DNA of 63,884 nt, filler included, from Reclinomonas americana ATCC 50394 (GCA_048213135.1; 12 parts of 12 records of this genome joined end to end with filler, not necessarily neighbours in it), one strand, 5' to 3'. Positions 2,954 to 61,389 are shown, numbered from the whole stretch's first letter. A program made the numbers and translations. Notes: generated from the letters alone by a model not told the origin.

Positions 2954-3182
2954 GCGCGTCGCAGCGAAGAGAGGCCGAGTGGAACGTGTGTGGATGCGCG
3001 GAGTCTCTCTTCATCGTGATGATGTCTTGCGAGAGTGTACACAGACCAGAAATTGGCGTGAAACGCTGGCTGGGTTGAGAACCCTGCCTCGAGAAAGTAG
3101 GGCAACGTCGTGAGACAACACTTGGTGTCCCGGACCTCAGTCATCAAGCTTCGTTGCTGTCGGTGTACGCAGACGATAAAGA

Positions 3183-16411: not shown

Positions 16412-17372
16412 ATGCTTCTCGTGAGTGCGCTCCCTCCCTCTTGCGCCTCTCTCTGCGCTCACTCACTCTTATGCACAGGTTCGCCTGTTGCAAGCACCGC
16501 GCGTGCTGCTCGCTGGCGGCTCATGGTCGACTCTGACGCGACCGCTGTCCACACAAGCCGACAACGCTGAAGGGTACTCTTCTCTCACTGCATGCCCTCT
16601 TACACACACACGCGCACTCACCCCTGCACACATGCACGTCAGGCAACGCGCGGCTCGTCGCGAGTACGCTCGCCAGTACTATCAACGCAATCGTGAACGC
16701 ATCCTCGCCGCTCGCCGACGCACTCCTTCCTCTCCCGCTGCTGCTGCTGCTGCTGCTGCGTCGTCTGCGGCCTCGTGGACTGCACCTGTGGCCACTCCAC
16801 TGGCCGACAACCTCGAGTTGCCCGTGTCCATCAGTGCCGCAGCTGCGTCGTCGTTCACGGCCAAGGCGGTGGCTGCCATGCTGGAGGCCGAGGCCGCGGA
16901 GAAGGTGCTGGTGTGCGACTTGCGGCAGCGTGAGGCGCCGCTGTGCGATTACATGGTGATTGCTACGGGGCGCTCCATGGCTCACCTGCGTCACTTGTGC
17001 GACTATGTGGTGCAACAGGTCGGTGTTCCTTTCATGCTCCACGTCTCTCTCTCTCTCGCTCGCTCTGACTCGGCGTAGGGCAAGACCGCGGGAGTGGGCG
17101 CGGCGCCTGTGGAGGGGCGCAACAGTTCGTGGCTGGTGGCCGACTTTGACGACTTTATTGTGCATCTGATGACGGCGGAGGAGCGGGAGCGTGTGGCGTT
17201 GGAGAGTTTGTGGCTCAACCCTGTGGCGCCCCGCAAGACGGCCCGGAAGGCGACGAGCGGTGGCGACGATGATGCCACTGGTGTGCGGAGACGAAAGAGG
17301 GAGCAGTCGGCAGAGTCGGCCTCCTCAACACGCCGACGAAGAGCAGCACCTCGCGCTGCTGGCGATCGATAG
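16412..17372 (+). CDS. RsfS/Iojap (MALSU1-like) ribosomal silencing factor, probably mitochondrial
   Basis: KVLVCDLR...LCDYMVIATGRSMAHL...VEGRNSSWLVADFDDFIVHLMTAEERERVALESLW is the RsfS signature. The N-terminus MLL|VRLLQAPRVLL looks like a presequence. Confidence 0.88.
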
Positions 17373-36394: not shown

Positions 36395-38448
36395 ATGCCA
36401 CGCGTTCGCTTTGTGGTGCGTCGGCAAGTGTATTTCGGCGAGTGTGTGGCGGTCATGGGCAGTGTGAGTGCGCTGGGTGCGTGGTCCACTGCAGCTCCGT
36501 TGCCGCTCACCTGGGCGCCTGGTGATGTGTGGCGTGTGGAGTGTGAGGTGAGAGAGTGATCTATGTCGTCGTCGGAATATCTTTCCTGTTGTTGTCGTCG
36601 TGGTTGCTTACATCGAGGCGGTGTGCAGATCAACGAGGAGGTGACCGAGTACAAGTACGTGGTGTTGAGAAGACCTCCGGTGGCCGTCGGCGCCAGTGCC
36701 GGTGCAGTGGAGGTGCGCGCGTTATTTCGCTGACTCTTTCTCTCCCTCTGTCGCTGTGCTCACCTTCGCCACCGCCAGCTGCAATGGGAACCCGGTCCCA
36801 ACCGCTTGCTCCGCCTCGGCTCGGAGACACCGAATGCGAGCGGCATTATTGTTGTCAGTGACGACTGGGTGAGCTGCTCTTCTCTTTGCGCGTGTGTGTC
36901 GCCGCCCCCTTCCATCTGCTGATCCGTGCGTGTTACAGCATGCGGTGTCGACCAAGGTGGTTTTCGAGGTGCAGAAGCACGTCGAGTATGGCGAGAGCCT
37001 GGCCGTGTATGGATCGTCCAAGCGGCTCGGTGAATGGAATCTCCTGGCGCCCGTGCGCATGCAGTGGTGCGAAGGTGACGTGTGGCGATCGCCGCCTGTC
37101 GAGGTGCGTTGATTCCCTTGCTGCGAGGCGCTGTATTTGGTTCGAGAACTGAGTGACTGACTGATTGCGATCGTGCAGTTCTCGGCCGAGGAGACCACGT
37201 TTGAAATGTCGTACAAGTACGCGGTGGTTCGCATTCTGCCCAGTGTCGACAGCACGGCAGTGGATCCGGGTCCGACGTGGGACGTGCGGTGGGAGAACGA
37301 CGTGAATCGCGTCGTGTTTATCGATCGGTGTGCCGACATGCCGGGTGCGCGCGATGCGGAGAGTGGTGTGGTGACACTGCGCGACACGTGGCGACCGCAC
37401 CTGCGACTTGTGCTTGTCGAGTGCCAGGGTCGCGTGCAGTTTGGCGAGCGACTGGCCCTGGTCGGCTCGTGCGCGACCCTCGGGTCGTGGGACGTGCAGC
37501 AATCGGTGCCGATGGAGTGGAACGAGAACGACGTGTGGACGGTGCGCGTTGCGGTGCCGGCGGGGGCACACTTTTACTTTAAGTTTGTGGTGGTCACCGA
37601 CATGGAGCTGAATCGCTCGACCAGCAACGGCGTGACAACTGCTACGGTGAGTGCTATTGCATGCTACGCGCACGAAGTTTCCTTGTCGCTCACCTTCAAG
37701 TTCCCAACAGTGGACGGCGCCGGTCAACGTGCTGTGGTGGGAGCCGGGTGACAACCACGTGGGCTTCCTCAGCGACGAGGGTGAATTCGGGTGGCACACG
37801 TCCTTCCGGCCGTCTACCGAGGCCGAGGAACAGGAGGCGTGGGCCGTTCACCGACAACACATGCCGCCGCAATCGCCGCCAATGTCACCGTCGCGGACTC
37901 ATCGCTCACCGCACCGCTCGCCATCGCGCTCACCACCACTGGCACCCGTGCACACAGACGACGGCTCCGGCAGTGGTGGTGGCGGCAGTTCTGGTGTGCC
38001 TCCGTCGCTCTCGCTCTACAACTCTATGGTGGTGGCGGCCGCTCTCCGCTCACACGCCGACGACACGTTGCGTTTGTTTCTCCGGCCTCACTCCCCCACT
38101 ATTTACTGTGTTGCTTACCAATACATGCAGGCCGTGCACGTGCTCCCGGTGCCGCGACGGCCAGCACGGCATGCTGATTTTGAGTCCGACATCCACCACA
38201 GCACAACCACCGCACGACTTGTCACCGCAAACAGCAGCTCGACTGGCGATTCCGTCGCTGATGCCCAAGTTCCCCGTGCACGTGCGCTCGTGGGAAGTGC
38301 GACCGGCCGCCTCGTCGGCTGTGCGTTTGCGTTTCGACGTCAGGTGAGCGAGACGCCATCTCCTCCCCTCCCCGTCTCACTCTCCCTCTTCCTCACATCC
38401 AACGACGTGCAGATTAACCCCTCCCCCACTGCTGTCGGTAGAGACTAG
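36395..38448 (+). CDS. Protein with three tandem CBM20 starch/glycogen-binding domains and a Ser/Pro-rich tail
   Basis: Three repeats of V.F...(F/Y)GE.(V/L)A(V/L).GS...LG.W.......W...DVW...(Y/F)K(Y/F)...WE, with N(R/H) shortly after, at ~36395-36870, ~36940-37395 and ~37400-37760. Confidence 0.88.
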
Positions 38449-44306: not shown

Positions 44307-44387
<81 letters not shown>

Positions 44388-45857
44388 ATCGCTGCTCTCA
44401 CCTCGAGGTAGCGGAACAGAAACTCGACAAACAGGTACACGATGATAAAGGGCGCCATCAGCAGGTTGACAAAGCCGAGCACCACGAATTCGGTCTTCAG
44501 CGCGCTGACAATGCCTTCACGATCCCGGCGGGCCAGCGCCTGCCGATCGAGCAGCGAGCGCACAATCTTCATGAGATTGTATTCCAGCGATCGCGTGAGG
44601 ATGCTGGTGTTGGAGAAGAACGGCAGCGGGATGTGTAAATCGAGCAAGTTCTTGTTGACCAGGCCAATCAAGTAATTCTGCTGGCGCATGATCCGGCTGG
44701 CGATATCTGTCAACGCGGGGGGAGAAGACAGTCAGCACATGTCACAGCGCGACTCCACCACGCGCCGACTCACCCAGCGCCGTCTGCTTGCGCTGCAATG
44801 TGAGCTGCATTCGCTCCTGCAGCAACTCCAGATTGTGCGCCACCACATGCCACTCGACGCTCTGCACATCCGACTACTCACACGCAACAGTGGTCAACAA
44901 GACGAACGCGTGAGAAGATACACACAGGCGCACGCAAGCGCAACATCAGTCATCTTCAAGTGTGTGCTGTAGAACGCTCGTGATCGACGCGCCGCCGCAA
45001 TGGTTCCGATCGACAGCCACAACTTCCAGCCCCAAAACACCACAAATCCCAGTTCGAGTACGGCCACATACCACTGTGCCGCCTCCATGCTGTTCCCACG
45101 CACACATGATGAGCGTGTGCGTGTGGACAACAACTCGGAGTCTAATCTGACGATTCTTCAAAGATCCTCCTCTGCTTTCGTGTGCGCGTGTGCTTTGCTG
45201 CGATCTCTCTCTCTGCGTGCGCGCGCGCGTGTGTGTGTGTAACGACTACAGTGCGTGTGAGCGGCAAACCTCCTGAACGGATGCTCGTGGATTTTACGCG
45301 CGTGTCGGAAACACTCGAGCGTGTCACACCGATTCAGCGCATCCCAGTCGACAAAGATGACCAGGAACGTGGTGAATGTGATCAAGAAGGCAATCGCTCT
45401 GTGTGTGAGTGCGTGAGAGAGAGCGCGCGCGTAAGTGAGTGAAACCGCACATCATTACAGTGTGAGTTGACGCAACAGCGACGACAGCACTTCGCTGAGC
45501 ACGATACACCAGTAGCCCTTTCTCACATAGTACTGATACAACTAGGAAGAAGAAGAAGACGACGATTCAAAGTGAGCATATGTAATCGGCGAAGAGAGAA
45601 GCAGACGTTACCTCCACAAAGAAATCATCGACATCGCCGGCGACCAATGGCGCCAATCGCTCATGTTCTGCCACCAGTGGAGCTGCTGCGGCAGCAGAAG
45701 AAGACGACGACGACGAGCGCACAGCTGCCAACTCCACATCGGCACCACTGGAGAAGAGCGAGGCGCCGGGCTCGACACCAAACAAACGCCGTGACGACGA
45801 GGACGACGACGCTGGCATAGAGCTGTCCTCGTGTTGAGGAAGGCGCACGTACGCCAT
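41666..45857 (-). CDS. ATG9: Autophagy protein ATG9 (lipid scramblase), multi-exon, spanning a gap
   Basis: VDDFFVE...YYVRKGYWCIVLSEV, FTTFLVIFVDW, DIASRIMRQQNYLIGLVNKNLLDL, LTRSLEYNL, LGFVNLLMAPFI, ISYTHYVP..W, VDFVRDNSVEVEGLGYVCSFSTFNFHRHGNP, GKMEKSFINFLANHPQW. Confidence 0.95.
44307..44386. repeat. (CT)n microsatellite, intronic, at a gap edge; another (CT)n at ~63838-63884
   Basis: Directly visible. Confidence 0.95.
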
Positions 45858-45939
45858 AGTACGCGCACGCGCAAAGAACGATACGAAAAACGAACAGAAA
45901 TAGCTGCCTTCGTCGATCGGTCTTTGCTCTGACTGTGTC

Positions 45940-46944
45940 ATGGAAGACGACGCGCTTGTGAGTCGCCTGGAGTGCGCTGGTGTGGAGGTGCTGTTGTATC
46001 GACCGGGTATGCTGGTGGCGGTGAACAAACCGGCGGGAATGCTGTCGGTGCCGGGTGGTCGTCGTCATTGCGGCGATTGGCGATCGCGACAGGAGCAGTG
46101 GGCGGCGTGTTTGCAGCTGGAGAGCACGCGACAGCGCGTGTTGTTGTGTGTGGAGGGTGGGGATGGGTTGTGCTGGTGGCAGCGGTGTGTGGACAAGGTG
46201 GTGCGTGAGGCGGTGAACGTGCCGCGGCGTGCTGATAAGTTTGTGGCGAGCTGTGTGCGCGCGTGGAAGCGCGAGTTTGCGGCGGTGGCGCGGGAGGATG
46301 TGGAGCAGGTGGCGCGTGTGGTGTTTGATGTGTGCGATGAGTGCATGGCGATCATGGAGGAGGAGGAGGAAGAAGCGTCGGCAGTGTCGGTGTTGGAGCT
46401 GTGCGGGCGTCATGCACATGCAGTGCATCGGTTGGACATGGAGACGTCGGGTGTGTTGCTCGTGGCACTGGACGCGCGTGTGGCGGCGGTGCTGTGCGAG
46501 CAGTTCCGACGAGATGATTGCGTGCAGAAGACGTATGTGGCGGTGGTGGAGGGCGACGGCGAGTGGGAGCACGGCCAGAGTGGTGTGTGTGAGCAGCCGA
46601 TATGTGCCGAGCCTGAACGCCGGCCGCGGCAGCAGCTCGATGTGAGCGGCGGCAAACCCGCGGTGACACGATGGGAGGTGCTGCGGCACGACGTCGACAG
46701 TGCGACAACTCGGATGCGCCTGCAGCCGATCACGGGTCGAACGCACCAACTGCGCGTGCACATGGCGTTGGCTCTGCGACACCCCATCGTGGGAGACTCG
46801 CTGTATGGTCGAGCGGCGGAGCGGCTGTTTCTGCACGCTGAAACGCTGGAGCTGTTTGATGTGCGTGAGGCGGCCAGTGGCTCCGGATGGGAGGTGGCTC
46901 ACGATGCCCCCCGTCTGCGTGTGGAAGCCGTTTGCCCTTTTTGA
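45940..46944 (+). CDS. RluA-family RNA pseudouridine synthase; single uninterrupted ORF
   Basis: VAVNKPAGML (motif I), HRLDMETSGVLLVA (catalytic Asp), KTYVAVV, TGRTHQLRVHM, PIVGDSLYG, RLFLHAETL. Confidence 0.93.
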   Translation: MEDDALVSRLECAGVEVLLYRPGMLVAVNKPAGMLSVPGGRRHCGDWRSRQEQWAACLQLESTRQRVLLCVEGGDGLCWWQRCVDKVVREAVNVPRRADKFVASCVRAWKREFAAVAREDVEQVARVVFDVCDECMAIMEEEEEEASAVSVLELCGRHAHAVHRLDMETSGVLLVALDARVAAVLCEQFRRDDCVQKTYVAVVEGDGEWEHGQSGVCEQPICAEPERRPRQQLDVSGGKPAVTRWEVLRHDVDSATTRMRLQPITGRTHQLRVHMALALRHPIVGDSLYGRAAERLFLHAETLELFDVREAASGSGWEVAHDAPRLRVEAVCPF

Positions 46945-47292
46945 AGGCGCGACTGTACGGATGCAGAAGGCAGGCGGACCGCGCGCCGCGTTCGGTAAAT
47001 CACCGCCGCGATTCATTCCCTCCACCCTGTTTTGCACTCGCGAGAGAGCGAAGGCAACTACAGCTCCCGCACGACGATCAAGTCTGTTGTACGCAACAGC
47101 ACTCCTCCCGCTGACGGCGCACGACAAGAGACACGACAGGTGCGTTTGTAGCGCGTCGTTGATTCCTGTCTACTCACTCAGCTCAAAATTGGCGTGGACG
47201 ATCACAGGCTCAAGCGGGTGGGCATGCGAAGGTTCGGGAGGACGGCAGAGTGTGCAGCGTGCACGGGATGCGCGGAGGCTGAAGCCGCAGCC

Positions 47293-50200
47293 ATGTCTGT
47301 CTCGTCGGCAATGGCGGCGGCGGCGGCACCATTCTCGGACGACCCCCAACCTCAGTTCACCACGGACACCGCGGAGACGGCTGCGCAACAGCGCGTCTCG
47401 TACATAGAAGCACTCGCGATGATGTGCTACAATGCGTTCTTCTTCGCGTTGACCGCGCGCGACCAGCTGACGAAGGAAAAATGGCCGAGTTGCGTACCCG
47501 CAGATGAGAGAATGATCCCTCGGTATATTTCTACCGAGCCACTGAATCCAAATTCGTGTCTACTGACCCCCTGTCACTCCCCAGTGTTTGTGGTGAACAT
47601 GCTGCTGGCATTGCTCAGTTCTGTGTCATACTATGCGGTCAGCGGCGGGACTATATTTGGAGTCCATGGCTGGGGTAGATTTTTGACGCTGTCGCCAAGT
47701 GTGCTGGAGACCAACTCGGTGCGGACACGCACTACGGCAGTGCAGTCTCCGCCCCTTGATGTACTCACATGTTGCATGTTTGTGTAACGCGCAGTCGGTA
47801 AACGCTCCGACGATAGCGCGTATCGGGGGCTTGCTCGGACCGCTTCTGATGCAGATCTTTCGACCGTCGCTGAGGTGAGGTTTGGTCAGTATTGACTACT
47901 TCTTCGCCCTCGCTCTGCTCACTGTTGTTGGACTTTGCGTGTGTAGTGTGCACATAATTGGCCTTGCACTGGTCGGCTGCACGTTCTCTGTCTGGGTGTC
48001 CGAGAGAAAGTTTGTTGCGTGTCAGAAACCGATGCAAATGCGCGCTCTCTTCTTCCGTGAAGCTGACGGCCCTTTGCGCACACAGTTGACACTGACGATG
48101 GTCCTGCACATGATCGTCGGCTACTGGCGTACGCTAGCTTTGGGGTATTCGTGGGTGAGTACCCTGGCCGCAGTCAACGGCGTTCATGGACGTGCTGACA
48201 TTCCCGATTTTTTGCTCGTCCACAACAAATAGGATACCGGCTTGGCCGTCACAATAATTCCACTGATTCTCGGTACCCGTGTGCTGGTGAGTATTCCCAC
48301 GCCCCTGTCCGTGCAAGTGCGGCAGACTGGCAAGGAATCGGCTGACTTGTCCTGCTGCGTGCGCAGAACACGTACTACGAGACACACGGAATTGTGGCGC
48401 ACTTGCGGCAAGCGAACCAGATGCTGCAGGAGCTGAACGCGCGTCTCGAGTGTGCCAACACATTGTTGGACGAGAAGGCCGCAGCATTGCAGGAGGCCAT
48501 CGAGGACAAGGATCTGTTTCTGAGCAAGGTGAAACCAACTAACTGAAAGTGTACGTGGTGCGGAAACTCACCCTGCGTTGCAGTGCTCGCACGAGTTGCG
48601 ACAGCCATGCTTCGGCATCATGTCGGCACTGGAGAGCTACACGTCTCTGTCGAAGCACAGCGATCCTGCAACCGCCGAGGCCATCTCGTCGTCACCTGGC
48701 ATCGAAAAGATTGCACGATACAACGACTCTTGTGTTGCGTGAAGCGTCTCGTCTTAGGCATCATCCGAGTGTTCTCACTCCTTTGTCAAACCCATGCAGG
48801 TGCACGACGGGCTGCAGGCAACACGGACATTGCTGGCCTTGTTGAATGGTCTGTGTCTGTGTGTATGATGTTTTCATCGTGCTTCTTGCCACTCACGTTG
48901 TGATCGGCGGCAGAGCTGTTGGATCTGATGAAGCAGAAGCGAATGACCATCAATGTGAAGCTGGCTCCCGAGTCACTGGTGGAGGTGTTGGCGTCGGGAG
49001 TGCGTTGTATGAGGCACATGGCGCAGAGGTTTGAAGTCAAGTGCTGCAACCTGGGGTGATTGCGACTCACGATGAAACTTACCGTGTGTGCCCAGTGCTG
49101 GCCTCGGCCTGTCCCTTCGTTTCGGTCCAATTCTCATGCACCATCACCGACGTGGTGTGCGGGCGTGGATGGATCGACTCCGAATCATTCAATGCCTCAG
49201 CAACCTACTCAGCAATGCCATCAAGGTATGCTGAATAGAGCGCGAAATTTGTTGCAGCGGTTCTGAGATTCACGTGTGAGTTGTAGTTCACCGAGGCTGG
49301 TTCCGTGTCTGTAACTGCCGACCTGTGTACACGCACCAAGGCCGACGCAGAAGAGTTGACACGCCGCGGCATCTGGGGAGGTTTCGTTGTACCCACGTTG
49401 ATCTGAGATTGACACCAGACTGACGTGGGTCGTCGCTCCGCAGAACCAGAGTACACGTACACTCCGATGTACGACTCGCAGCAATTCCTCACAGCACCAA
49501 CACACTTCGCATCCGAGGTGCAGGAGCACCCCTCCGAGTACTACGTGCGCGTGTGTGTGGCCGACACAGGCCAGGGAGTGTCATTGGATGATGCCGCACA
49601 CTTGCTGGAGCCATTCTACCAGAGTTCCACCAGTCGAACGCGACATCAGTTTGCCGGCACGGGTCTTGGCCTGACGCTGGTGCGCGACATGTGCCGTACG
49701 CTGTGGGATGGCGATCTGTGGTGCGTATTGCGGTGGAGGCGACTTGTGTTCGAGTGGGTGGGGATGTTCACCGATAATGGCTGCAGGTTCGAGACTCAAG
49801 CTGGCATCGGATCGCGGTTCTACTTTTCCTTCCCCTATAAGCCTTCATCGTCGTCGTCGTTGCGTTTTCTTCTTTTTTTTTTTTGCGTTGACTGTCTCGA
49901 TTGTTCCTGACTTTCAAGAGCAGTGGTGCCGACGTGGCAGCCACCTCCGAGACACCACAGAATTCCGACGCACAACAGGCCGCCACCGTTGAGAGCAAGA
50001 AGTCGACCGAGTATGTGACGCCAGGTGCGCCCGATGGGATCCTCCCTGCGACCAGCACGCCGCCACCGCCAGTGTGCCAACGACCACAGCTGTCGTGTGT
50101 GATTGTCGATGACAGTCGAGTGGTGGTCAAGGCGCTCGAACGGTTGTGCGTGTCGCACCCAGTTGAGTGCGCCGTGTAGTGCGTCTGGTGATTGCCGTTT

Positions 50201-51230
50201 GGGGCTGACTGTGGCGCAGATGCTGGAGGTGCGAGTGGACGAGTCATTTCCGGACGGCAGACCGTTCCTCGACTGGCTCCAACTACGACTCGACTCGTAC
50301 AGTGCGAGGCGTGAAGAGAAAGGCGAGATGGCGAGCTCAATGACGTTGCCGGATGTGATCTTCTTGGATATGCACCTGCAGCGAGTGCATGGAAAGGAGA
50401 CGATGGAGGCGATCAGCAACATGTGTCGAGCATATAGAGTTCACCGGCGACCGCTGACGGTGCTGATGAGTGGTGACGCCGTGTGTGTCGTTCCGCGCTC
50501 ACCTGGTTTGTCCCCATTCCTGTGCGCCAGTCGCCAGTTGTCCACCGTTACTAAAGCTACACACAAACAGAGAGTGACGACGACGGGCCTGCTTTCGTGC
50601 TGCAGAAACCGACTCCGAGGGTGAGTCGTTGGTGTGTGGTGGTTTATCGTTGGCGAGTGCGGGCATTTGCTGAGTTGGGTGTTGCAGACGGCTGTGCATC
50701 AGCTGTTGACTGCGGTCGCGGTGCGGCGAGGCATTCTTCCGCAGTCTCATCCTTTCGAAATTGACTCGCCGCCGCTGATGACCGGTGGCACCCTGTCGCG
50801 TCGCTTGCCGAGCTCTGTGCGATCTTCGCCAACTCCAGTGCGTTCATCGCCCCTGCATCACTCACGGACAGCCACACTTCAGCAGCAGCGACCGCCGCCA
50901 GACCCCACGTCCAAGCCCTCGATGCCGTGGCTCAAGACGTCTCCGTCTTCGATCTCGACACCTGTCCTGGGCGATGTGGCCGCGCTGCTATCGCCCACTG
51001 CGGTGCACTCGAAATCGCCCCAGTCTCAGAACACAACTCCAGCAAAGCAGAAACGGGTGCAGGACGCTGCTCGCATTGCCACTGAACTGGACCTGCCGTC
51101 ATTGTCGCCACACTCGCTGATGAGCACAATCCTTCTCTACGATGGTGATGGTTGGTCGTCTCACAGCAGCAACGGCGACAGCAGCGCCCCTCCGGTTTTC
51201 TCAAGTGCGCGAGCCTCGCCGATTAGTTAA
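47293..51230 (+). CDS. Membrane hybrid histidine kinase, copy 1 (divergent sensor, HisKA, HATPase_c, receiver)
   Basis: About six hydrophobic segments, then KDLFLSK|CSHELRQP (H-box), LSNLLSNAIK|FT (N-box), VADTGQGV (G1), EPFYQ (F), GTGLGLTLV (G2). Receiver VIVDDS...PDVIFLDMHL...LMSG...VLQKP. The start could instead be 47224. Confidence 0.92.
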
Positions 51231-51403
51231 GATCGATGATGCGTGTGTGCGCGAGATAGATAGACAAACAGCTAATGGTAAATACATTGTTTTGCTTGCA
51301 CGAAAGAATCAACGATAGTTGAGAGAAGAGTCGCCCGAGTAGGCAGTCAGCAGAATCAAACTTGTTTCATGCTTCCATTGGGTGCGCAGACAACACCCTG
51401 CAT

Positions 51404-51465
51404 CACCAATTCGGGAGGAGAGCGGAGAGAACGAGCCCCCCAGACGTGTGCTCTCGCTGTTTCTC
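51404..51465 (+). promoter_or_regulatory. Conserved upstream block shared by HK copies 2 and 3 (second copy at ~55541-55608)
   Basis: CCAATT followed by the near-identical GGAGAGCGGAGAGAACGAGCCCCC(C)AGACGTGTGCTCTCGCTGTTTCTC, ending ~20-35 nt before both ATGs. Confidence 0.45.
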
Positions 51466-51497
51466 GACACCTGCGCGCGCTCACACGTATTGGCGAC

Positions 51498-54400
51498 ATG
51501 CTGTCCACTGCCAAAGACCGTGACACCTCAGCGGCAGCGGCGCAGTCCTTGCAAGTGGCGGCCACATCGATGTTGCCATCGGAGGACTCTGTTCCTCTGA
51601 GAGCTGATGCGGATGTCGACGACGATGCAGAGATAACGGCGGAGGACGAGGACGAAGAAGAAGAGGAGGAGCACGGGGAAGGAGAGGAGCCATTGTTGCT
51701 GCCGGCGACAACAAGTCAGTACTTGGAAGGCGTTTGTGTCACAGTCGCCGCCTGTGTGTGCGCCTGCTGCACTGCGTTGCACTGGTGGTTCACGGAGCAC
51801 AGTCTCATAAGTTACATGCATTCTTCGCGCTGCTGCCTCATGTCTGTGATGCGCTGACAGTGTTGCATTGTGATGACAGTGCTGTTCTTATTGTTGAGTA
51901 CGCTGGCGGCGTTCACTGTGTGGTTTGTCAAGTTGGCGGGTACGTGGTGGCTTTCACCGCACGCGTGGCGGAAGATGATTTCGATTGCAGGAGGCCTTCG
52001 TGCCGGAATCGAGGTCAGTGGTGTGCGCGCATGGCGAGTTGTCTTCGACCTCACTTCTCATCTGCCTGCAACACTCACAGATAATCCGTGCTCGCCGATG
52101 GACATACATGCTGCTTGGTGTCACTGCAAACATCATTGTGACTGCCTTCGTGCCGGCGATAAGGTGTGTGTTGGTTATCACTGTTGTTGTACTTGGTGCA
52201 CCAGTGAAAAGTTGACTTGTGGGTGCAGCTTGACACTGCTTACCTCGATTATTATGTCGGGCATTGTCACCACCTGGCTGTACCCCTCGCCGTCACTGGT
52301 TTGTGGTCCCTTCTGCTATCCTTACTTCGATGTTATCGTCGCTGACAGCCTTTTGCGTGGTCAGTCGGCATTGAACCTTTTGCTCAATTCTGTAGTCAAC
52401 TGCTACAAGGCGTACTCATTCGGCCTTTCACTGGTCTGTCTGTGTCCACGTTGTGTGTCTCACGCGCGTCAGTCGCGTGCTGATTGGGTGTGCATGCAGG
52501 ATATGTGTTTCTTCGCCACCATCCAGCCACTGCTGCTGGGTCTGCGAGCATATGTTGCGTGTGCTGCGAGAGCACTGCCGTCACTCTTCTCCTCCATGTT
52601 CACTGTGCTGCAGAACTCGTTTGGCGACGTACACACGGCGATTGAGGACTTGCGAGTTGTCAACACTCGCATTCACGACACCAACACGAAACTCGAGTGT
52701 GCCAACACGTTGCTCACGGAGAAGGCCGAGGCACTCACCGAGGCCATTGAAGACAAGGATCTGTTTCTGAGCAAGGTGAGACTGAGCGCCGCGAATTTGC
52801 AGCAGCACATGTGATGCGACAACTCACCCTGTGTTTGCAGTGCTCGCACGAGTTGCGACAGCCATGCTTCGGCATCATGTCGGCACTGGAGAGCTACATG
52901 TCTCTGTCGAAGCACAGCGATCCTGCAATTGCCGAGGCCATCTCGTCGTCACCTGGCATCGAAAAGATTGCACGATACAACGACTCTTGTGTTGCGTGAA
53001 GCGTCTCGTCTTAGGCATCATCCGAGTGTTCTCACTCCTTTGTCAAACCCATGCAGGTGCACGACGGGCTGCAGGCAACGCGGACATTGCTGGCCTTGTT
53101 GAATGGTCTGTGTCTGTGTGTATGATGTTTTCATCGTGCTTCTTGCCACTCACGTTGTGATCGGCGGCAGAGCTGTTGGATCTGATGAAGCAGAAGCGAA
53201 TGACCATCAATGTGAAGCTGGCTCCCGAGTCACTGGTGGAGGTGTTGGCGTCGGGAGTGCGTTGTATGAGGCACATGGCACAGAGGCAAGTCAACTGAAT
53301 GCAGCAGCCTGAGTGATTGCAGCTCACGATGAATGTGACCGTGTGTGCACAGTGCTGCTCTCGGCCTGTCACTGCGAGTTGGTCCGATTCTCATGTACCA
53401 CTACCCGCGTGGTGTGCGGACGTGGATGGATCGACTCCGGATCATTCAATGCCTCAGCAACTTGCTCAGCAATGCCATCAAGGTTTGATGGCAGAAATAT
53501 GGTTGCAGCAGTTCTGATTCTCACTTGTGAGTTGTTAGTTCACCGAAACTGGCTCTGTGGCGGTGACTGTCGTTCTGGCCACTCGCACCAAGGCCGACCC
53601 AGAAGAGCTGGCACGCCGCGGCATCTGGGGAGGTTTCGTTTGTACTCACTTTGATACGAGATTGACACCGGACTGACGTGGTGTCGCTGCGCAGAACCCG
53701 AGTACATGTACTCGCCCATGTACGACATGCAGCAGTTCCTCGTGGCTCCGACACGCTTCGCGTCCGAGGTGCAGGAGCACCCCTCCGAGTACTACGTGCG
53801 CGTGTGTGTGGCCGACACAGGTCAGGGAGTGTCGTTGGATGATGCAGCACACTTGCTGGAGCCATTCTACCAGAGTTCCACCAGTCGAACGCGACATCAG
53901 TTTGCCGGCACGGGTCTTGGTCTGACACTGGTGCGCGACATGTGCCGTACGCTGTGGGATGGCGATCTGTGGTGTGTATTGCGATGAAGGCGACTTGTCT
54001 TTGAGTGCGTCGACATGCTTATCGATGCTCATGGTTGCAGGTTTGAGTCGAAAGTCGGCGTCGGATCACGGTTCTACTTCTCCTTCCCCTACAAGCCTTC
54101 ATCGTCATCGTTTCGTTACTTTATGTTACTTGTGATCATATCCTGTTTGGTTTCTGACGTTGGACATAATGCAGCGACAGCAGCTCCGAGATGCACCATG
54201 ACGCCAGTTTGCAGCAGGCTGAGACGGCGATGCCAACCGAGAATGTGACCCAAGCCAAGCCCGTTCGGGTCCACTCGCCTTTGTCGCAACAGGCCAGTGC
54301 CCTGCCATCGCCGATGAACCAACGTCCCCAGCTGTCGTGTGTGATTGTCGATGACAGTCGCGTGGTGGTCAAGGCGCTCGAGCGGCTGTGTGTGTCGCAT

Positions 54401-55419
54401 CCAGTTGAGTGTGCCGTCTGGTGGTTGCCTGGTGTGACACAGAAGCTAACTGCGACACAGATGCTGGAGGTGCGAGTGGACGAGTCATTCCCGGACGGAC
54501 GCCCGTTCCTCGACTGGCTCCAGCAACGCCTCGACACTTACGGCGCAAAGCGTGAGGAGAAGGGTGAATCAGCGTGTTCTACGATGCTGCCGGACGTGGT
54601 GTTCTTGGATATGCACTTGCAGCGAGTGCACGGGGCGGAGACGATGGAGGCGATCAGCAACATGTGTCGAGCATACAGAGTTCATCGACGACCGCTCACA
54701 GTGTTGATGAGTGGTGACGCCGTGTGTGTTCTCCCACAGTCGCAAGGTGTGGTTTGTGACGTATTTCCTGTTGCTTGTTAACATTCTCGGTGTTGACAGC
54801 CTTCCCACAGAGAGTGAAGACGACGGACCTGCATTTGTGCTGCAAAAGCCGACTCCGAGGGTGAGTCGTCGTTGTGCGGTGGTTGTCTCCGAGTTTGCTG
54901 ACTTGGGTGTTGCAGACGGCCGTGCATCGCTTGCTGACTGCAGTCGCTGTGCGGCGAGGCATTCTTCCACGTACGTACCACTGCACCGAGATTGACTCAC
55001 CGCCGTCGTTGGCCGTGGACAGCAACACCACGGTGGTTCCACCGTGTCCGCCGCCCGCGGCGCCAGTGCGATCGCCGCCAAAGGCCTTCCGTTGGGTTCC
55101 ATCAAACAACACACCTCCGACGACGACACCTCTGCTGCAGCAGCAACAACGTCCTCGACAACGACCAAGATTACTGCGTTCTTCGTCGTCGTTCACATCG
55201 TCGGTGGCCGCAGGCGAAGCCAGCACTTCCGAGTCCGCCGCGGAACACCACGCAGCCACTCGTGCGCATGCTGCCAGAGTTGCCGCCGAGCTGGATCTGC
55301 CGTCGGCGTCTCACCATTCACTGATTACCACTGTTCTTGCGTATGGCGTCTGCGAGTCGTCGTCACACAGCAGTGGCAGTGCAAGTAGCAAGCGGGGGGG
55401 AGAGATAAGCGTGACTTAG
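51498..55419 (+). CDS. Membrane hybrid histidine kinase, copy 2
   Basis: Same exon structure and the same H/N/G1/F/G2/receiver motifs as copy 1; acidic N-terminus; one GC-AG intron (donor at 53286). Confidence 0.92.
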
Positions 55420-55629
55420 TGAACCTGTGTGCTGTATATAGTGTGTAAACTGCGTCCCTTGTTGTTTGAGCACGCGGGAGAGACAAGAGGAATCGATGGA
55501 GGAGGGAAGTATTCGATATCCGTATTGCGCACCCGCGCACACCCAATTTAGGAGACTTCGGAGAGCGGAGAGAACGAGCCCCCCAGACGTGTGCTCTCGC
55601 TGTTTCTCAGCACTGCACATAAGGCGACC

Positions 55630-58600
55630 ATGCTGTCCGCTCGTGCGGATGATGGCCGCGACAACACTGGTGGAGTATCGACGATGTCGGCTGCCGGAGT
55701 GGGCAAATTGAATTTGCCGTCATCGCGTTCGAGGGCTGAAGTGACTGGCGACAATGCAGAGATGACAGAGGAGGAGAAGGAGGAGGAGGAGGAGGACGAC
55801 GACCCGCCGATGGCGCCAGTGACGACCAGTCAGTATTTGGAGAGCGTGTGTGTCACAGTCGCCGCCTGTGCGTGCATCTTCGGCGGCGTGCTGCACTGGT
55901 GGCAGACCGAAGGCTCTGTGACAAGTTGCGTGCACGCACGCACGCACGCACGCGCTTTCTCTCTCTCTCTCTCTGTCTCTGTCTCTTATTCTCTCACCAC
56001 GAACCACGGAATCTAGTGTTGGTGTTGTTGCTGGGACTGCTGGCGGCCGCCACTGTGTCGTTTGTCAAGTTGGCAGGAGCCTCGTGGCTTTCGCCATACG
56101 CATGGCAACGGATGATGACGATTGCGGGTGGTCTTCGTGCCGGAATCGAGGTCTGCACGATGACGAATCACTCACTGACGGTCCTCACACTCACGCAGTG
56201 TGCGTGCAGAGGATCCGCGCGCGACGATGGTCATATGTGTTCCTGGGAGTGGTGGCAAACGCGATCATCGTTCTCTTCGTGCATCGATTGAGGTGTGGCG
56301 ATCACGGCTGTGTCGAGCAGAAAGTGGTTCTCTTTGTGTCAACTCATACCTGCGTCGTGCCCAGCTTCGTTCTTCTCGGCTCGATCCTGTTGTCGGCCAT
56401 CGTCACCACCTGGTTGTATCCCTCGCCGTCACTGGTTTGTGGTCCCTTCTGCTATTTTCATTGTCAGCATCGTTGACAACCCTGCGTGGTCAGTCGGCGT
56501 GGAGTCTGTTGCTCAACTCTGCAGTCAACTGCTACAAGGCGTACTCATTCGGCCTTTCACTGGTCTGTCTGCGTCCGTGCTCTGCTTCCGTGCGCGTTGC
56601 GTGCTTATTGAATGGGCATACAGGATATGTGTTTCTTCGCCACCATCCAGCCACTGCTGCTGGGTTTGCGAGCATATGTTGCGTGTGCTGCGAGAGCACT
56701 GCCGTCACTCTTCTCCTCCATGTTCACTGTGCTGCAGAACTCGTTTGGCGACGTGCACACGGCGATTGAGGACTTGCGAGTTGTCAACACTCGCATTCAC
56801 GACACCAACACGAAACTCGAGTGTGCCAACACGTTGCTCACGGAGAAGGCTGAGGCACTCACCGAGGCCATTGAAGACAAGGATCTGTTTCTGAGCAAGG
56901 TGAAACCAACTAACTGAAAGCGTACGTGGTGCATCAACTCACCCTGTGTTTGCAGTGCTCGCACGAGTTGCGACAGCCATGCTTCGGTATCATGTCGGCA
57001 CTGGAGAGCTACATGTCTCTGTCGAAGCACAACGATCCTGCAATTGCCGAGGCCATCTCGTCGTCACCCAGCATCGAAAAGATTGCACGATACAACGACT
57101 CTTGTGTTGCGTGAAGTGTCTTGTCGTCTTCGGCATCATCCGAGTGTTCTCACTCCTTTGTCAAACCCATGCAGGTGCACGACGGACTGCAGGCAACGCG
57201 GACACTGCTGGCTTTGTTGAATGGTCTGTGTCTGTGTGTTCATCGCGCATCTTGCCACTCACGTCGTTGATCGTCGGCAGAGCTGTTGGATTTGATGAAG
57301 CAAAAGCGAATGACCATCAATGTGAAACTGGCTCCCGAGCCACTGGTGGAGGTGTTGTTATCAGGCGTGCAGTGTATGAGGCACATGGCGCAGAGGCAAG
57401 TCAACTGAATGCAGCAGCTTGAGTGATTGCAGCTCACGATGAAAATGACCGTGTGTGCACAGTGCTGGTCTCGGCTTGTCACTGCGAGTTGGTCCGATTA
57501 TCATGTACCATCATCGACGTGGTGTGCGGACGTGGATGGACCGACTCCGAGTCGTTCAGTGCCTCAGCAACCTGCTCAGCAATGCGATCAAGGTTTGCTG
57601 TCCAAATGTGAATATGGTTGCAGCGATTCTGAGACTCACGTGTGAGTTGTAGTTCACCGAAACTGGCTCTGTGGCGGTGACTGTCGTTCTGGCCACTCGC
57701 GCAAAGGCTGATCCAGACGAGTTGACACGGCGTGGCATCTGGGGAGGTAGCGTTTGAGTCCACCTCGTTCTCGAGATTGACGCCAGACTGAAGTGGTGCC
57801 GCTCCGCAGAACCGGAGTACATGTACTCGCCCTTGTATGACATGCAGCAGTTCCTCACGGCACCAACACACTTCGCATCCGAGGTGCAAGAGCACCCCTC
57901 CGAGTACTACGTGCGCGTGTGTGTGGCCGACACAGGCCAGGGAGTGTCGTTGGAGGATGCAACGCACTTGCTGGAGCCATTCTACCAGAGTTCCACCAGT
58001 CGGACGAGACATCAGTTTGCCGGCACGGGCCTCGGTCTGACGCTGGTGCGCGACATGTGCCGTACGCTGTGGGATGGCGATCTGTGGTGCGTATTGCGGT
58101 GGAGGCGACTTGTGTTCGAGTGCGTCGGGATGTTCACCAACGATGGTTGCAGGTTCGAGACTCAAGCTGGCATCGGATCGCGGTTCTACTTTTCCTTCCC
58201 GTTCAGACCGACGTCGTCGCCGTTGCGTTTCTTCTTAGATGTAGTACTTACTGTCTCGTTTATTTTCTTGACAATCGAGAGCAGCGGTGCCGACGTGGCA
58301 GCCACCCCCGAAACACCACAAAATCCCGACACGCAACAGGCCGCCACCGTTGAGACGGCAAAGTCGACGGAGAATGTGACGCCAGCCGAGCCCGTTCAGG
58401 CCCTCCCTCCGTCGCAACAGGCGACCAGCACGCCGCCACCGCCAGTGCGCCAACGACCACAGCTGTCGTGTGTGATTGTCGATGACAGTCGAGTGGTGGT
58501 CAAGGCGCTGGAGCGGCTCTGTGTGTCGCATCCAGTTGAGTGCACCGTGTAGTACGTCTGGTGGTTGCCTGGTGTGACACAGAAGCTGACTGCGACACAG

Positions 58601-59603
58601 ATGCTGGAGGTGCGAGTGGACGAGTCATTTCCGGACGGCGGGCCGTTTCTCGACTGGTTCCAGCAACGCCTCGATGCGTACGGCAAGAAGCGCGAAGAGG
58701 AGGGAGAGACGGCGTGTTCGACAATGCTGCCCGATGTGATCTTCTTGGACATGCACCTGCAGAAAGTGCACGGGGAGGAGACGATGGAGTCGATCAGCAA
58801 CATGTGTCGAGCGTACAGAGTTCATCGGCGACCGCTGACGGTGCTGATGAGTGGTGACGCTGTGTGTGTCGTTCCGCGCTCACTGGGTTCGTCCCTCTCA
58901 CGTGTTTCTTGATGCTTGTTGCAAGTTGTCAGTGTTGACAGCCGTTTCACAGAGAGTGAAGACGACGGACCTGCATTTGTGCTGCAAAAGCCGACTCCGA
59001 GAGTGAGTCGTCGTTGTGCGGTGGTTGATCGCGGGGATTAGTTGACTTGACGCGTGCTGCTTGCTGTAGACGGCCGTGCACCAGGTGCTGACCGCAGTCG
59101 CGGTGCGGCGAGGTATTCTTCCGCAATCGTCACATTCGCTTGCCACCGAGTCGCCGCCCGTGGCGGTCGGAAGCGTGCAATCACAGCGTGTGCCGCGCGC
59201 GGTTCCACTGCGACCGCAGCCGAAAGCGGCGCCACCAATCAAGGCCAAGGCAACCACCACAACCCCATCGAGACAACACCGCCCACGATCAGCGCTGCAT
59301 GCACAATCGCAGTCGCTGCGGATGCGGTCAAGGTCGTCGCGCTCATCTGCATCATCGTCGTCGCTCGCCGGAGATACACGCACTCCCGCTGCGGAGCATT
59401 GGAGTGCCACTCACGTGCAGGCGGCCAGGGTGGCTGCCGAACTGGACCTGCCGACGGTATCGCAACGGACGCTGATGACGACAGTCCTAGCCTGCGGCAT
59501 TGGAGACTCTTCGTCGCACAGCAGCAGCAGCGGCAGCGTCAACAGCGCTCCTCCTCATTCAGTGCACACGGGACACGAAAGAGGAGAGATGAATATTGCG
59601 TGA
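55630..59603 (+). CDS. Membrane hybrid histidine kinase, copy 3
   Basis: Same architecture and motifs; GC-AG intron (donor at 57396). Confidence 0.92.
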
Positions 59604-59860
59604 AGCCGGCGCCGGTGTCGTCGGTGTGACTGCAAATGTATGGCGGTGGCTGTGTTCTTGAATGTTGCGCTCCTCTTCTTTTGTGTGGGTGTGCGCGCCC
59701 GCGAGGTGCAAGTGCGCAAGAAAACGATTCGCCACGACGACGAAGCCAGCTGCAGCGACGAATTTGGAAAATTCAATTGCTCACTGTGTGTTGTTTTACG
59801 CACGGCACGAGTGAGCGCGTAAGGGACTGTGTGCTGGCATTCACAGTGTGTGTGTCAACA

Positions 59861-61389
59861 ATGTCGGCAGCGAGCGGTGACGACGGTGGCGCAGCACCAA
59901 CACAACCTCTGCCCTCCCCTCCCTCTCCACCAGCTCGCTCCTCCTCCGCCTCCTCTCTCTCCTCCAGAGAGGAGCGCAGAGCGCGAGGCGCGGTAGAGGA
60001 GGAGAGGATAGTGGTGGAGGAGAAGATGGAGAAGGAGGAGGAAACGACTGTGAACACCAGTCAGTACATGGAGGGCATCTGTCTCACCATTGTCTCGTTC
60101 TTCTGCGCGCTCGGCAGTCCACTGCACTGGTGGCTTGTGGAGGGCAACCTCGCCAGTTCCGTACGCGAGCACAGCGCCAGTGTGCGTATTCCTCACTTCC
60201 TCTCTCTCACACATGCGCACACACGCGCACGCACGCACACAGTGTTCCTGTTCCTCATGGGCGCTCTGGTGGTCATCACTGTGTGCTTTGTCAAGCTCGC
60301 GGGTGCCTCGTGGATGTCACCACGCGGGTGGTATCAGATGATATCAATTGCCGTCGGTCTGCGCGCCGGACTTGAGGTCTGTGCGCTCGTGAGATCTCTG
60401 CTCGCTCACTCACTCATTTGTGTACCGCACACCACAGACAATTCGCGCACGCAGATGGATGTATGTGGCGATGGGATTGGTGGTGAACGGCACAGTCATT
60501 GTATTGGTGCCAAGATTGAGGTGGCGTCTTTTTTTCATTGATTCCTTCCTCTTCTGCTCGACTGTGACGTGGAGACTCACCGTGAGTCTGATTGGCGCAG
60601 CTTGGTGCTGCTCTCATCGGTACTGCTGTCTGGTATCATCACCACGTGGCTGTATCCGACGCCAACGCTGGTGTGCACCATTTGTATTCTGCTCAACAAG
60701 ATGTCGATTGTGGCTGATCGTGCGTGTTCTCTGTACGCAGACGGCGTGGAACATGCTGCTCAATGCAGCGGTGAACTGTTACAAGGCGTACTCTTTTGGC
60801 CTGCCGCTGGTCTGTCTGCGTCGCAGGCTCCGAGCGTGCAGCCGGTCGCGCAGCTCACCAATCCTTTTTGCAGGACATGTGTTTTTTTGCCACCGTGCTG
60901 CCACTGTTGCTGGGTCTGAGGGCATTCGTTGCGTGTGCAGCGGGAAGGAGCGTCAGCTGTCGAACAACTTTCCGCCCGGGCTCACCACTTGCGCGCGCAG
61001 AACTACTTTGGCGATGTGTATGCCATGATCCAGGACTTGCGCGAGTTTATTCATCGCATCAACGACACCAATACGAAACTCGAGTGCGCCAACACGTTGC
61101 TCACCGAGAAGGCCGAGGCGCTCACCGAGGCCATCGAGGACAAGGATCTGTTCCTCAGCAAGGTGAGACCCGGCGCAGTGAATCAGCAGTGGGTGGATGA
61201 TGTGAGCTCACACGTGCTGGCTGTTGCAGTGCTCTCACGAGCTGCGACAACCCTGTTTCGGTATCCTGTCGGCACTCGAGGCGTACACGCCCCAGACGAC
61301 GTCGACGCCGCACAAGTTGTCCCTCACAGTGCAAAATGAGTCTTGCGTTGCGTGCATGGGCTTGGGGAGAGAGGGGGGGAGGGGCTTCA
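59861..61389 (+). CDS. Membrane histidine kinase, copy 4; truncated by the gap after the H-box exon
   Basis: Homologous TM exons (SQYMEGICLT, VKLAGASWMSP, VNCYKAYSFG), coiled coil and SHELRQPCFGILSALE. Confidence 0.85.

Follow-up and report, generated by a model that had tools for sequence, protein, structure and literature searches.

A tandem array of predicted membrane hybrid histidine kinases in Reclinomonas americana, with sensors probably recombined onto a shared core

Eukaryotic His-Asp-His-Asp relays are familiar from Sln1-Ypd1-Ssk1 and from Dhk-RdeA-RegA in Dictyostelium. The multistep phosphorelay of eukaryotes runs from a histidine kinase (HK) through a histidine-containing phosphotransfer protein (HPt) to a response regulator (RR) (PMC6324907), and, according to the main text of the same survey, Tetrahymena thermophila has 70 HKs, Naegleria gruberi 24 and Thecamonas trahens 11; most of the Tetrahymena and Naegleria kinases carry several N-terminal helices, and most of those of Tetrahymena have no known N-terminal domain. 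CqsS of Vibrio and LqsS of Legionella are six-helix, short-loop kinase receptors for lipophilic ligands, and modules of this type are movable to another output (PMC4821796). Here we describe four hybrid HK genes that lie head-to-tail on the plus strand of one contig (G000:C4423, positions 44307-61389) in a 63,884-nucleotide stretch of DNA from Reclinomonas americana ATCC 50394 (GCA_048213135.1). This stretch, hereafter the window, consists of contigs joined by N spacers, and coordinates are positions of the whole stretch. Taken as a whole, the array is best explained, and we think probably, as part of a small membrane hybrid-kinase family with a compact six-helix sensor bundle, whose sensors have been recombined onto a shared core.

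The genome assembly (G000) comprises 108 Mb over 16,441 contigs, including intronless, bacterial-looking contigs (e.g., C1 and C2) and many contig pairs that resemble split haplotypes. Copy 2 was annotated by hand, and its model was transferred to the other copies with an exon-chaining script; three donors, those of exon 4 in copy 1 and of exons 15 and 16, were replaced using homologues and intron lengths. Because the script itself demanded canonical splice sites and phases, these carry no independent weight, and all gene models are predictions. They are nevertheless supported, because exon sizes agree and frames are open even in copy 1, whose sensor is only 17-19% identical to the others. Exons 2 to 7, for instance, have equal size and phase in all copies, copy 1 included (134, 83/80, 70/67, 69, 54 and 162 nt), as an earlier note on this DNA had noticed in speaking of matching intron positions in at least four tandem genes. 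That count holds as three complete, intact 18-exon genes, with predicted products of 944, 945 and 956 aa and no internal stops, followed by a fourth that is cut off by the contig end and is present only as exons 1-8. The main features are as follows.

47224..51230, plus strand: copy 1, 18 exons, with a divergent (type A) sensor; 944 aa from the first ATG, 922 aa from the ATG at 47293
47398..48286, plus strand: predicted six-helix sensor of copy 1, from the end of exon 1 through exon 6; shares 17-24% identity with every other family member
51417..51465, plus strand: 49-bp tract in front of copy 2; the same sequence stands at 55560-55608 before copy 3, whereas the copy 3 allele is only 76% identical
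51498..55419, plus strand: copy 2, 18 exons, 945 aa; copy-4-type sensor and coil on a copy-1-type core and tail
51717..52553, plus strand: sensor of copy 2; six hydrophobic segments, outer loops of 2-7 residues, one basic 33-residue inner loop
52614..52775, plus strand: exon 7 of copy 2, coiled coil from the last membrane helix to the H box, a putative signalling helix
52740..52765, plus strand: interval in exon 7 of copy 2 (nt 127-152) in which informative sites switch from copy-4-like to copy-1-like
52841..53105, plus strand: HisKA of copy 2, exons 8-9; H box SHELRQP, with the His298 codon at 52847-52849
53171..54109, plus strand: HATPase_c of copy 2, exons 10-14; N, G1, F and G2 boxes intact
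54329..54951, plus strand: receiver of copy 2, end of exon 15 to start of exon 18; acidic pair, Asp716 (54608-54610), Ser750 and Lys774
54916..55419, plus strand: exon 18 of copy 2, with a long Ser/Pro-rich tail; conserved block AAR[IV]A[AT]ELDLP, in copies 1-3 only
55630..59603, plus strand: copy 3, 18 exons, 956 aa, made up as copy 2
59861..61346, plus strand: copy 4, exons 1-8, 328 aa, truncated where the contig ends (61389); its sensor shares 59-61% identity with copies 2-3, and its exon 8 has diverged

A second contig, G000:C4535, is colinear with the array contig over 17 kb at 92% and carries its own versions of all four genes in the same order; we take it to be the other haplotype. Between the two contigs, flanking genes share 97-98% and parts of the array 88-99% identity. 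All eight models (four genes on each of two contigs) are free of stops, and both contigs break off within intron 8 of copy 4, at one and the same G-rich tract. The 116 introns in these models measure 53-103 nt. The genes are presumably expressed; of four runs, one gave contigs on the stretch, but these five pieces hold no joints and carry no weight for or against expression. Intron 10 is of the GC-AG type at the same position in five of the six complete models (53286 in copy 2, 57396 in copy 3), copy 1 of the window having GT.

The predicted proteins comprise a low-complexity N-terminal tail, six hydrophobic segments (exons 1-6), a coiled coil (exon 7), HisKA, HATPase_c, a linker, a receiver and a C-terminal tail. 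Pfam recognises HATPase_c at E 4.6e-13 (copy 1), while HisKA (E 0.026 for exon 8 alone) and Response_reg (E 0.0025 on one exon) fall below the cut-off. The H-box His and the N, G1, F and G2 motifs are kept in all complete copies, and the acidic pair, phospho-Asp, Ser/Thr and Lys of the receiver are present in all six complete models. By these catalytic residues copies 1-3 are predicted to be hybrid HKs, presumably active as kinases, so that the gene models, domains and residues bear out the tandem membrane HKs of the earlier note. Position His+4 of the H box, usually a Thr or Asn that serves as the phosphatase residue, is Gln in all nine genes whose H box was inspected. The core is also as alike among copies 1-3 as had been claimed for their HisKA and HATPase regions: protein identity in exons 8-13 is 74-100%, mostly around 90%.

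Over the eight genes that were aligned, the sensor consists of six hydrophobic segments with mean hydropathies of 1.3, 1.8, 1.7, 1.6, 0.9 and 1.6, a count made by hydropathy that leaves five to seven helices possible. The one long loop follows helix 2 and has 33 residues with 4.8 Lys plus Arg per sequence; it is basic, as a loop on the inner side would be expected to be. The alternate loops have only 2-7 residues. Judging from hydropathy and loops, both ends of the sensor would be cytoplasmic, with almost nothing beyond the membrane. Ten sensor columns, ending at the Asn that opens exon 7, are invariant or the same in seven of the eight genes. Those invariant in all eight include a Glu at the start of helix 1, a Trp in the inner loop, a Ser in the turn between helices 3 and 4, a Trp after helix 4, the Gly and Asp that flank the loop between helices 5 and 6, and the Arg and Asn after helix 6, and a Lys near the outer end of helix 5 is found in six genes (Arg and His in the other two). 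Conserved polar residues of this sort would be easier to understand in a binding or switching element than in a mere membrane anchor.

The divergence of this region is as uneven as had been described, moderate among copies 2-4 (59-74% identity) and almost beyond alignment between these and copy 1 (17-19%); across the eight genes, copies 2-4 excepted, sensors are 17-32% identical. A family count over the genome, one of the checks that the earlier note had proposed, gave at least seven genes in G000, since genome searches with single exons added three dispersed genes with this sensor, C291, C6307 and C278 (allele pieces C3972 and C6918), to the four of the array. The family is not confined to this genome, as a metagenome scan revealed a complete gene with matching introns in a different assembly (L071; two of 596 pattern matches were confirmed, both of the same sequence). 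The sensor of copies 2-4 is closest to that of C291 (29-32%). The sensor tree has long branches, and its deep nodes are unsettled. Core-only pieces are also found in G000 (C11222/C11204, C6224, C6309 and C637/C1774). In C278/C3972 (L054:1751-2056 minus; L067:9067-9372), sensor exons 1-2 and 3-6 are each fused, and one intron has about 835 nt of repeats. A further hybrid kinase, C939 (around 5000-10500; L181, L171; allele C2008), has a multi-helix N-terminus that is unrelated by profile to the array sensors and has no Pfam match.

The sensor and core of copies 2 and 3 have different histories and have probably been joined by recombination. Both copies resemble copy 4 in exons 1-7 (for exon 7, 81% against 57% to copy 1), whereas from exon 8 onwards their identity is 92-96% to copy 1 and 44% to copy 4. 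In copy 2, exon 7 has 40 copy-4-type and 13 copy-1-type informative sites before the switch, and 0 and 13, respectively, after it, as far as nt 57 of exon 8. The switch point thus lies just before the H box, at the junction of coiled coil and H box. In exon 8, copy 4 is only 44-50% identical to copies 1-3, and the core of copy 4 is thus not constant. The long tail is common to copies 1-3 only, and these copies, like C637, are without the G2-box intron of C11222, C291, C6307 and L071; in C278 an intron lies close by. As for the missing half of copy 4, the orphan 3' piece C11222 is closest to C291 (56%, against 40% to copy 2), and it may fit there because C11222 and the sensor of copies 2-4 are both closest to C291. 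The most likely history starts from two old adjacent genes, A (copy 1) and B (copy 4), which would have crossed unequally to give A, a gene with the front of B and the back of A, and B, after which the middle gene would have been duplicated. We moderately favour this direction over the reverse one, because the searches gave no fourth core of the type of copies 1-3 and there is an orphan 3' piece that belongs to another type.

The constancy of the core is largely due to gene conversion on top of purifying selection, because introns and alignment windows match paralogs over alleles. On the array contig, copies 1 and 2 share introns 8 and 9 without a difference (100%), whereas copy 1 and its own allele agree there by only 68% and 85%; intron 6 is the same in copies 2 and 3 (this comparison used models older than the donor replacements). 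Over 52337-54067, from exon 5 to exon 13, the nearest sequence is a paralog and not the allele in 27 of 54 copy-windows of 200 columns, against 0 of 30 upstream and 1 of 42 downstream. The 49-bp tract reflects a recent conversion in which the region upstream of copy 3 was overwritten from copy 2 in one haplotype only; that it is a regulatory motif is ruled out by the allele that lacks it. When copies 2 and 3 are compared at silent sites, helices 1-4 have a divergence of 0.68 but helices 5-6 one of 0.17; HisKA plus ATPase have 0.25, the receiver has 0.45 and the tail 1.5, a pattern that would be expected if recurrent conversion kept the core of copies 1-3 alike while helices 1-4 escaped it. A run-length shuffle test was discarded as unspecific, as 11 of 12 paralog pairs but also three of three allele pairs exceeded it. 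Allele divergence is 10-12% in copy 1 and in the sensor of copy 3 (47380-49855 and 55820-56677), compared with 2-3% in flanking genes and less than 2% in copy 4; conversion accounts for the core part, and the sensors might hold old balanced alleles.

The per-domain comparison of amino acid and silent change (dN/dS) that had been suggested gave 0.38 for the sensor between copies 2 and 3 (95% range 0.25-0.57) and 0.12 for the receiver (0.07-0.20), the sensor being higher with Fisher p values of 0.005 and 0.008 on the two haplotypes. Other values for the sensor were 0.25-0.28 against copy 4, 0.07-0.31 between alleles and 0.25-0.42 for paralogs overall, and those for the core were 0.10-0.20. The sensor is therefore under purifying selection and evolves faster than the receiver, whereas values of about 1 between copy 1 and the others are saturated (dN and dS above 1.1) and were rejected as a sign of positive selection. 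The contrast of a variable sensor with a constant core, as the earlier note had put it, is indeed seen, but it comes largely from gene conversion in the core, with sensor ratios well below 1 wherever they are measurable.

No known sensor domain was recovered in the fragment, profile and profile-profile searches that were run, in line with the earlier failure to assign one. The sequence queries were unspliced, namely a copy 2 frame that keeps exons 2 and 4-7 in frame together with introns, and two intron-free C278 exons that jointly cover the whole C278 sensor. With these pieces, whose sensitivity is lowered, no family was found in Pfam, NCBIfam, PDB sequences or plasmids, and phmmer against 1.84 billion representatives gave one match, to the coil exon of L071, and none to the sensor helices. 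A profile of the spliced sensor alignment scored at best a non-significant 3.6 bits against 153 fetched proteins, the two best scores (3.6 and 0.9 bits) including MASE8 carriers, and profile-profile comparison with eight small groups of membrane N-termini from kinase matches gave a probability of at most 1.1%. For MASE8 (PF20968) it was 0.09%, against 0.31% for a reversed control, with shallow profiles (6 versus 10 sequences). Relatives of the ATPase exon are, after the L071 fragment, generic, mostly bacterial-looking kinases with about 30-55% identity, and 5 proteins among the 120 ATPase matches listed carry PF20968. The likeness to CqsS and LqsS is one of layout by hydropathy, with six short helices and short loops, one of 33 residues, before HisKA, and membership of a CqsS-like or MASE-type group may still apply.

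Four described receptor types fail on their defining features; to three of these the earlier note had been unable to assign the region. The outer loops of 2-7 residues do not allow for the large extracellular domain between two helices of a CHASE receptor. Ethylene receptors have three helices with conserved Cys and His for copper; in the array sensor no Cys or His column reaches six of eight genes, and the profile against 10 PF25487 carriers gave 0.23% (reversed control 0.42%). Histidine kinase rhodopsins have seven helices with a retinal Lys in the last, whereas the array sensor has six segments, its Lys belongs to helix 5 and gives way to Arg or His in two of eight genes, and fragments gave no Pfam rhodopsin match. 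Nor does the sensor have the conserved His of a cytochrome b-like anchor; the heme-binding six-helix anchors have four spaced intramembrane His (PMC4821796).

If these features are put together, the six-helix bundle would sense within the membrane or at its surface, most likely a small hydrophobic or amphipathic molecule. The cue would shift the bundle, and helix 6, which would continue into a coiled coil of about 50 residues, would let the latter set the HisKA/ATPase dimer to a kinase or a phosphatase mode. Phosphate could then pass from His298 to receiver Asp716, to an HPt His and to a further regulator, as the established logic of such pathways would suggest (PMC6324907). The array would have arisen by duplication and by recombination at the coiled-coil/H-box junction, which would place two sensor types, that of copy 1 and that of copies 2-4, on one type of core, and near-identical HisKA domains would allow mixed dimers of the copies. 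A search for an HPt partner, also proposed earlier, led by a degenerate motif (HDVKGASSTIG in the match) to an intron-split HPt-like gene at G000:C214:15306-15680 (L131:1336-1710), for which Pfam Hpt is the sole family match (E 0.0027, with an intron in the query). Pfam genome search missed this gene, the 5' part of which lies within N stretches; its only HPt match was CheA-like and came from a chemotaxis cluster that has no introns and was judged bacterial, and the first motif match was antisense to another gene. A wider HPt motif had 26 matches, against 44 in the control, of which one is the eukaryotic HPt candidate and one CheA. An RR motif gave 32 matches, of which the inspected pair C939/C2008 is another hybrid kinase and the rest were judged bacterial by contig alone.

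Other explanations deserve to be weighed against this one. The fragmented assembly, its split haplotypes and the near-identical stretches of the core might suggest an assembly artefact or a set of decaying pseudogenes, but we consider this extremely improbable, because the second contig repeats the gene order with distinct alleles; all eight models are also stop-free, and every unsaturated dN/dS is below 1. A more substantial doubt is whether the sensor is a remote member of a known six-helix family (CqsS/LqsS, adenylate-cyclase anchors or MASE) or of the type found at Tetrahymena, Naegleria or Thecamonas N-termini. The outline is shared, with six short helices, short loops and a helix running into HisKA, the MASE8 carriers stand among the best, though non-significant, profile scores, and unspliced queries lose sensitivity; yet no Pfam or NCBIfam family was found for the C278 fragments, profile-profile probabilities were about 1% or less for MASE8, ethylene-receptor-like and six other groups, and the single phmmer match covers the coil only, so that we regard such membership as possible but on balance doubtful. 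Much the same weight, that of a somewhat unlikely alternative, can be given to the idea that copies 2-4 are plain duplicates and that copy 1 is the recombinant, with the sensor of an old paralog on a core and tail from the lineage of copies 2 and 3, all with the same function. In its favour, copies 4 and 2 differ at silent sites to much the same degree in the sensor (1.08) and in exon 8 (0.96), and the tails of copies 1-3 diverge about equally (1.1-1.7). Against it, genome searches with exons 10, 11, 13 and 16 gave only three allele pairs of the core type of copies 1-3, and a different type is seen in the orphan 3' pieces C11222/C11204 and C6224, with the G2-box intron kept and a short tail.

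It is also conceivable, though unlikely, that what the bundle detects is no ligand but the membrane's physical state (thickness, fluidity, tension or osmotic stress), and that the array mainly raises dosage or tunes thresholds. Multi-helix kinases such as DesK do sense membrane state, and the lack of an extracellular domain, the short helices, an amphipathic Trp-rich inner loop and the finding of purifying selection only would all suit such a role. Against it stand the invariant Asp and the basic residue at the outer face, and sensors that are 17-32% identical yet lie side by side with intact frames in both haplotypes, which exceeds the needs of dosage. Less likely still, and rather speculative, is a bolder form of our proposal, in which a protist would use an undescribed eukaryotic six-helix receptor family to read, inside the membrane, lipophilic signals from bacteria or from its own kind, and the sensors would be cassettes swapped at a fixed point just before the H box and wired to one HPt output, possibly via mixed dimers.

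Several observations weigh against the reading that we prefer, a small family of compact six-helix sensors recombined onto a shared core. Positive selection was not seen, every unsaturated sensor dN/dS being well below 1, and membrane helices tolerate more substitutions, so that the higher ratio in the sensor could arise without any new specificities. Helices were counted from hydropathy, which is weak in helix 5, and when AlphaFold modelled helices 3-6 of a paralog from a single sequence, three long helices came out (pLDDT 57). Only seven genes with the array sensor were found, a lower bound, and the chemoreceptor repertoire suggested earlier would thus be a small one, with no ligand indicated. 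Exons 9-11 of copy 4 were not found in single-exon genome searches, its join to C11222 is putative, and the switch point could be the mere upstream limit of conversion between copy 1 and copies 2/3. As for the relay, the C214 HPt reaches 18.3 bits where the Pfam cut-off is 24.6, nothing ties it to the array kinases in particular, and no stand-alone eukaryotic RR was found, the family search being filled by intronless matches, mostly on C1, C2 and small contigs.

Upstream of the array lies an RNA pseudouridine synthase gene (45940-46944, plus strand; Pfam E 4e-30), the alleles of which are 97% identical and which served as a single-copy control. It is intronless amid introns every 50-300 bases elsewhere, and it could be a retrocopy or a transferred gene. 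Divergent from it are exons of the autophagy gene ATG9 (around 44420-45450, minus strand; Pfam E 1.7e-25), and ATG9-like sequence may extend onto the preceding contig. Other exons in the window belong to a mitochondrial processing peptidase beta (2173-3078, plus), a BEACH protein (4737-7049, minus), the ribosome silencing factor RsfS (16425-17078, plus) and a CBM20 starch-binding protein (37161-37751, plus). The best matches of the peptidase exon do not exceed 56% identity, and a search for SSU rRNA gave a single match, on C1.

In most protist HKs the N-terminal membrane regions are unnamed and the stimuli unknown. This locus offers a defined family with invariant residues that can be mutated; several of its sensors vary naturally over a common core, and with the candidate HPt partner this would make sensor swaps and ligand screens readable through a single relay. 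The locus is also a clear example from nature of receptors being rewired through recombination at the signalling helix, as well as a caution, since a variable sensor and a constant core in tandem arrays can arise from gene conversion without positive selection.

Compared with eukaryotic phosphorelays, the array shares the HisKA-HATPase-receiver layout and the presence of an HPt-like gene in the same genome, but Sln1-type sensors have two helices around a large outer loop, unlike the array sensor, and the array H box has Gln at His+4. Bacterial MASE8-HisKA-HATPase-REC kinases likewise have five to six helices, short loops, a coil and an H box, from which the array sensor is set apart by a profile-profile probability below that of the reversed control. 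With CqsS, LqsS and the six-helix adenylate-cyclase anchors (PMC4821796), the array has in common six short helices, short loops and a dimeric kinase output; it differs from CqsS and LqsS in its 33-residue inner loop after helix 2, its long coiled coil and its eukaryotic genes with 17 introns; the likeness is one of layout. The six-helix modules of that report are movable just after the membrane, and a similar natural move seems to have occurred here. The HKs of Tetrahymena, Naegleria and Thecamonas, as presented in the main text of PMC6324907, are, like those of the array, protist hybrid kinases with multiple N-terminal hydrophobic helices, no known sensor and lineage-specific expansion. Database searches gave no sequence link to them, and they are set apart here by description and not by direct comparison of sequences. 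In the literature searched, which mostly leaves subscription journals uncovered, we found no description of the array sensor family or of conversion in eukaryotic kinase arrays, and the word "tandem" does not occur in the main text of PMC6324907, whereas the present array shows a defined family, conserved residues, conversion tracts and a swap point. Thus, the array is of a kind already known, that of protist kinases with orphan sensors, and what it adds is a defined sensor family without a detected relative, together with a natural record of swap and conversion in a tandem array.

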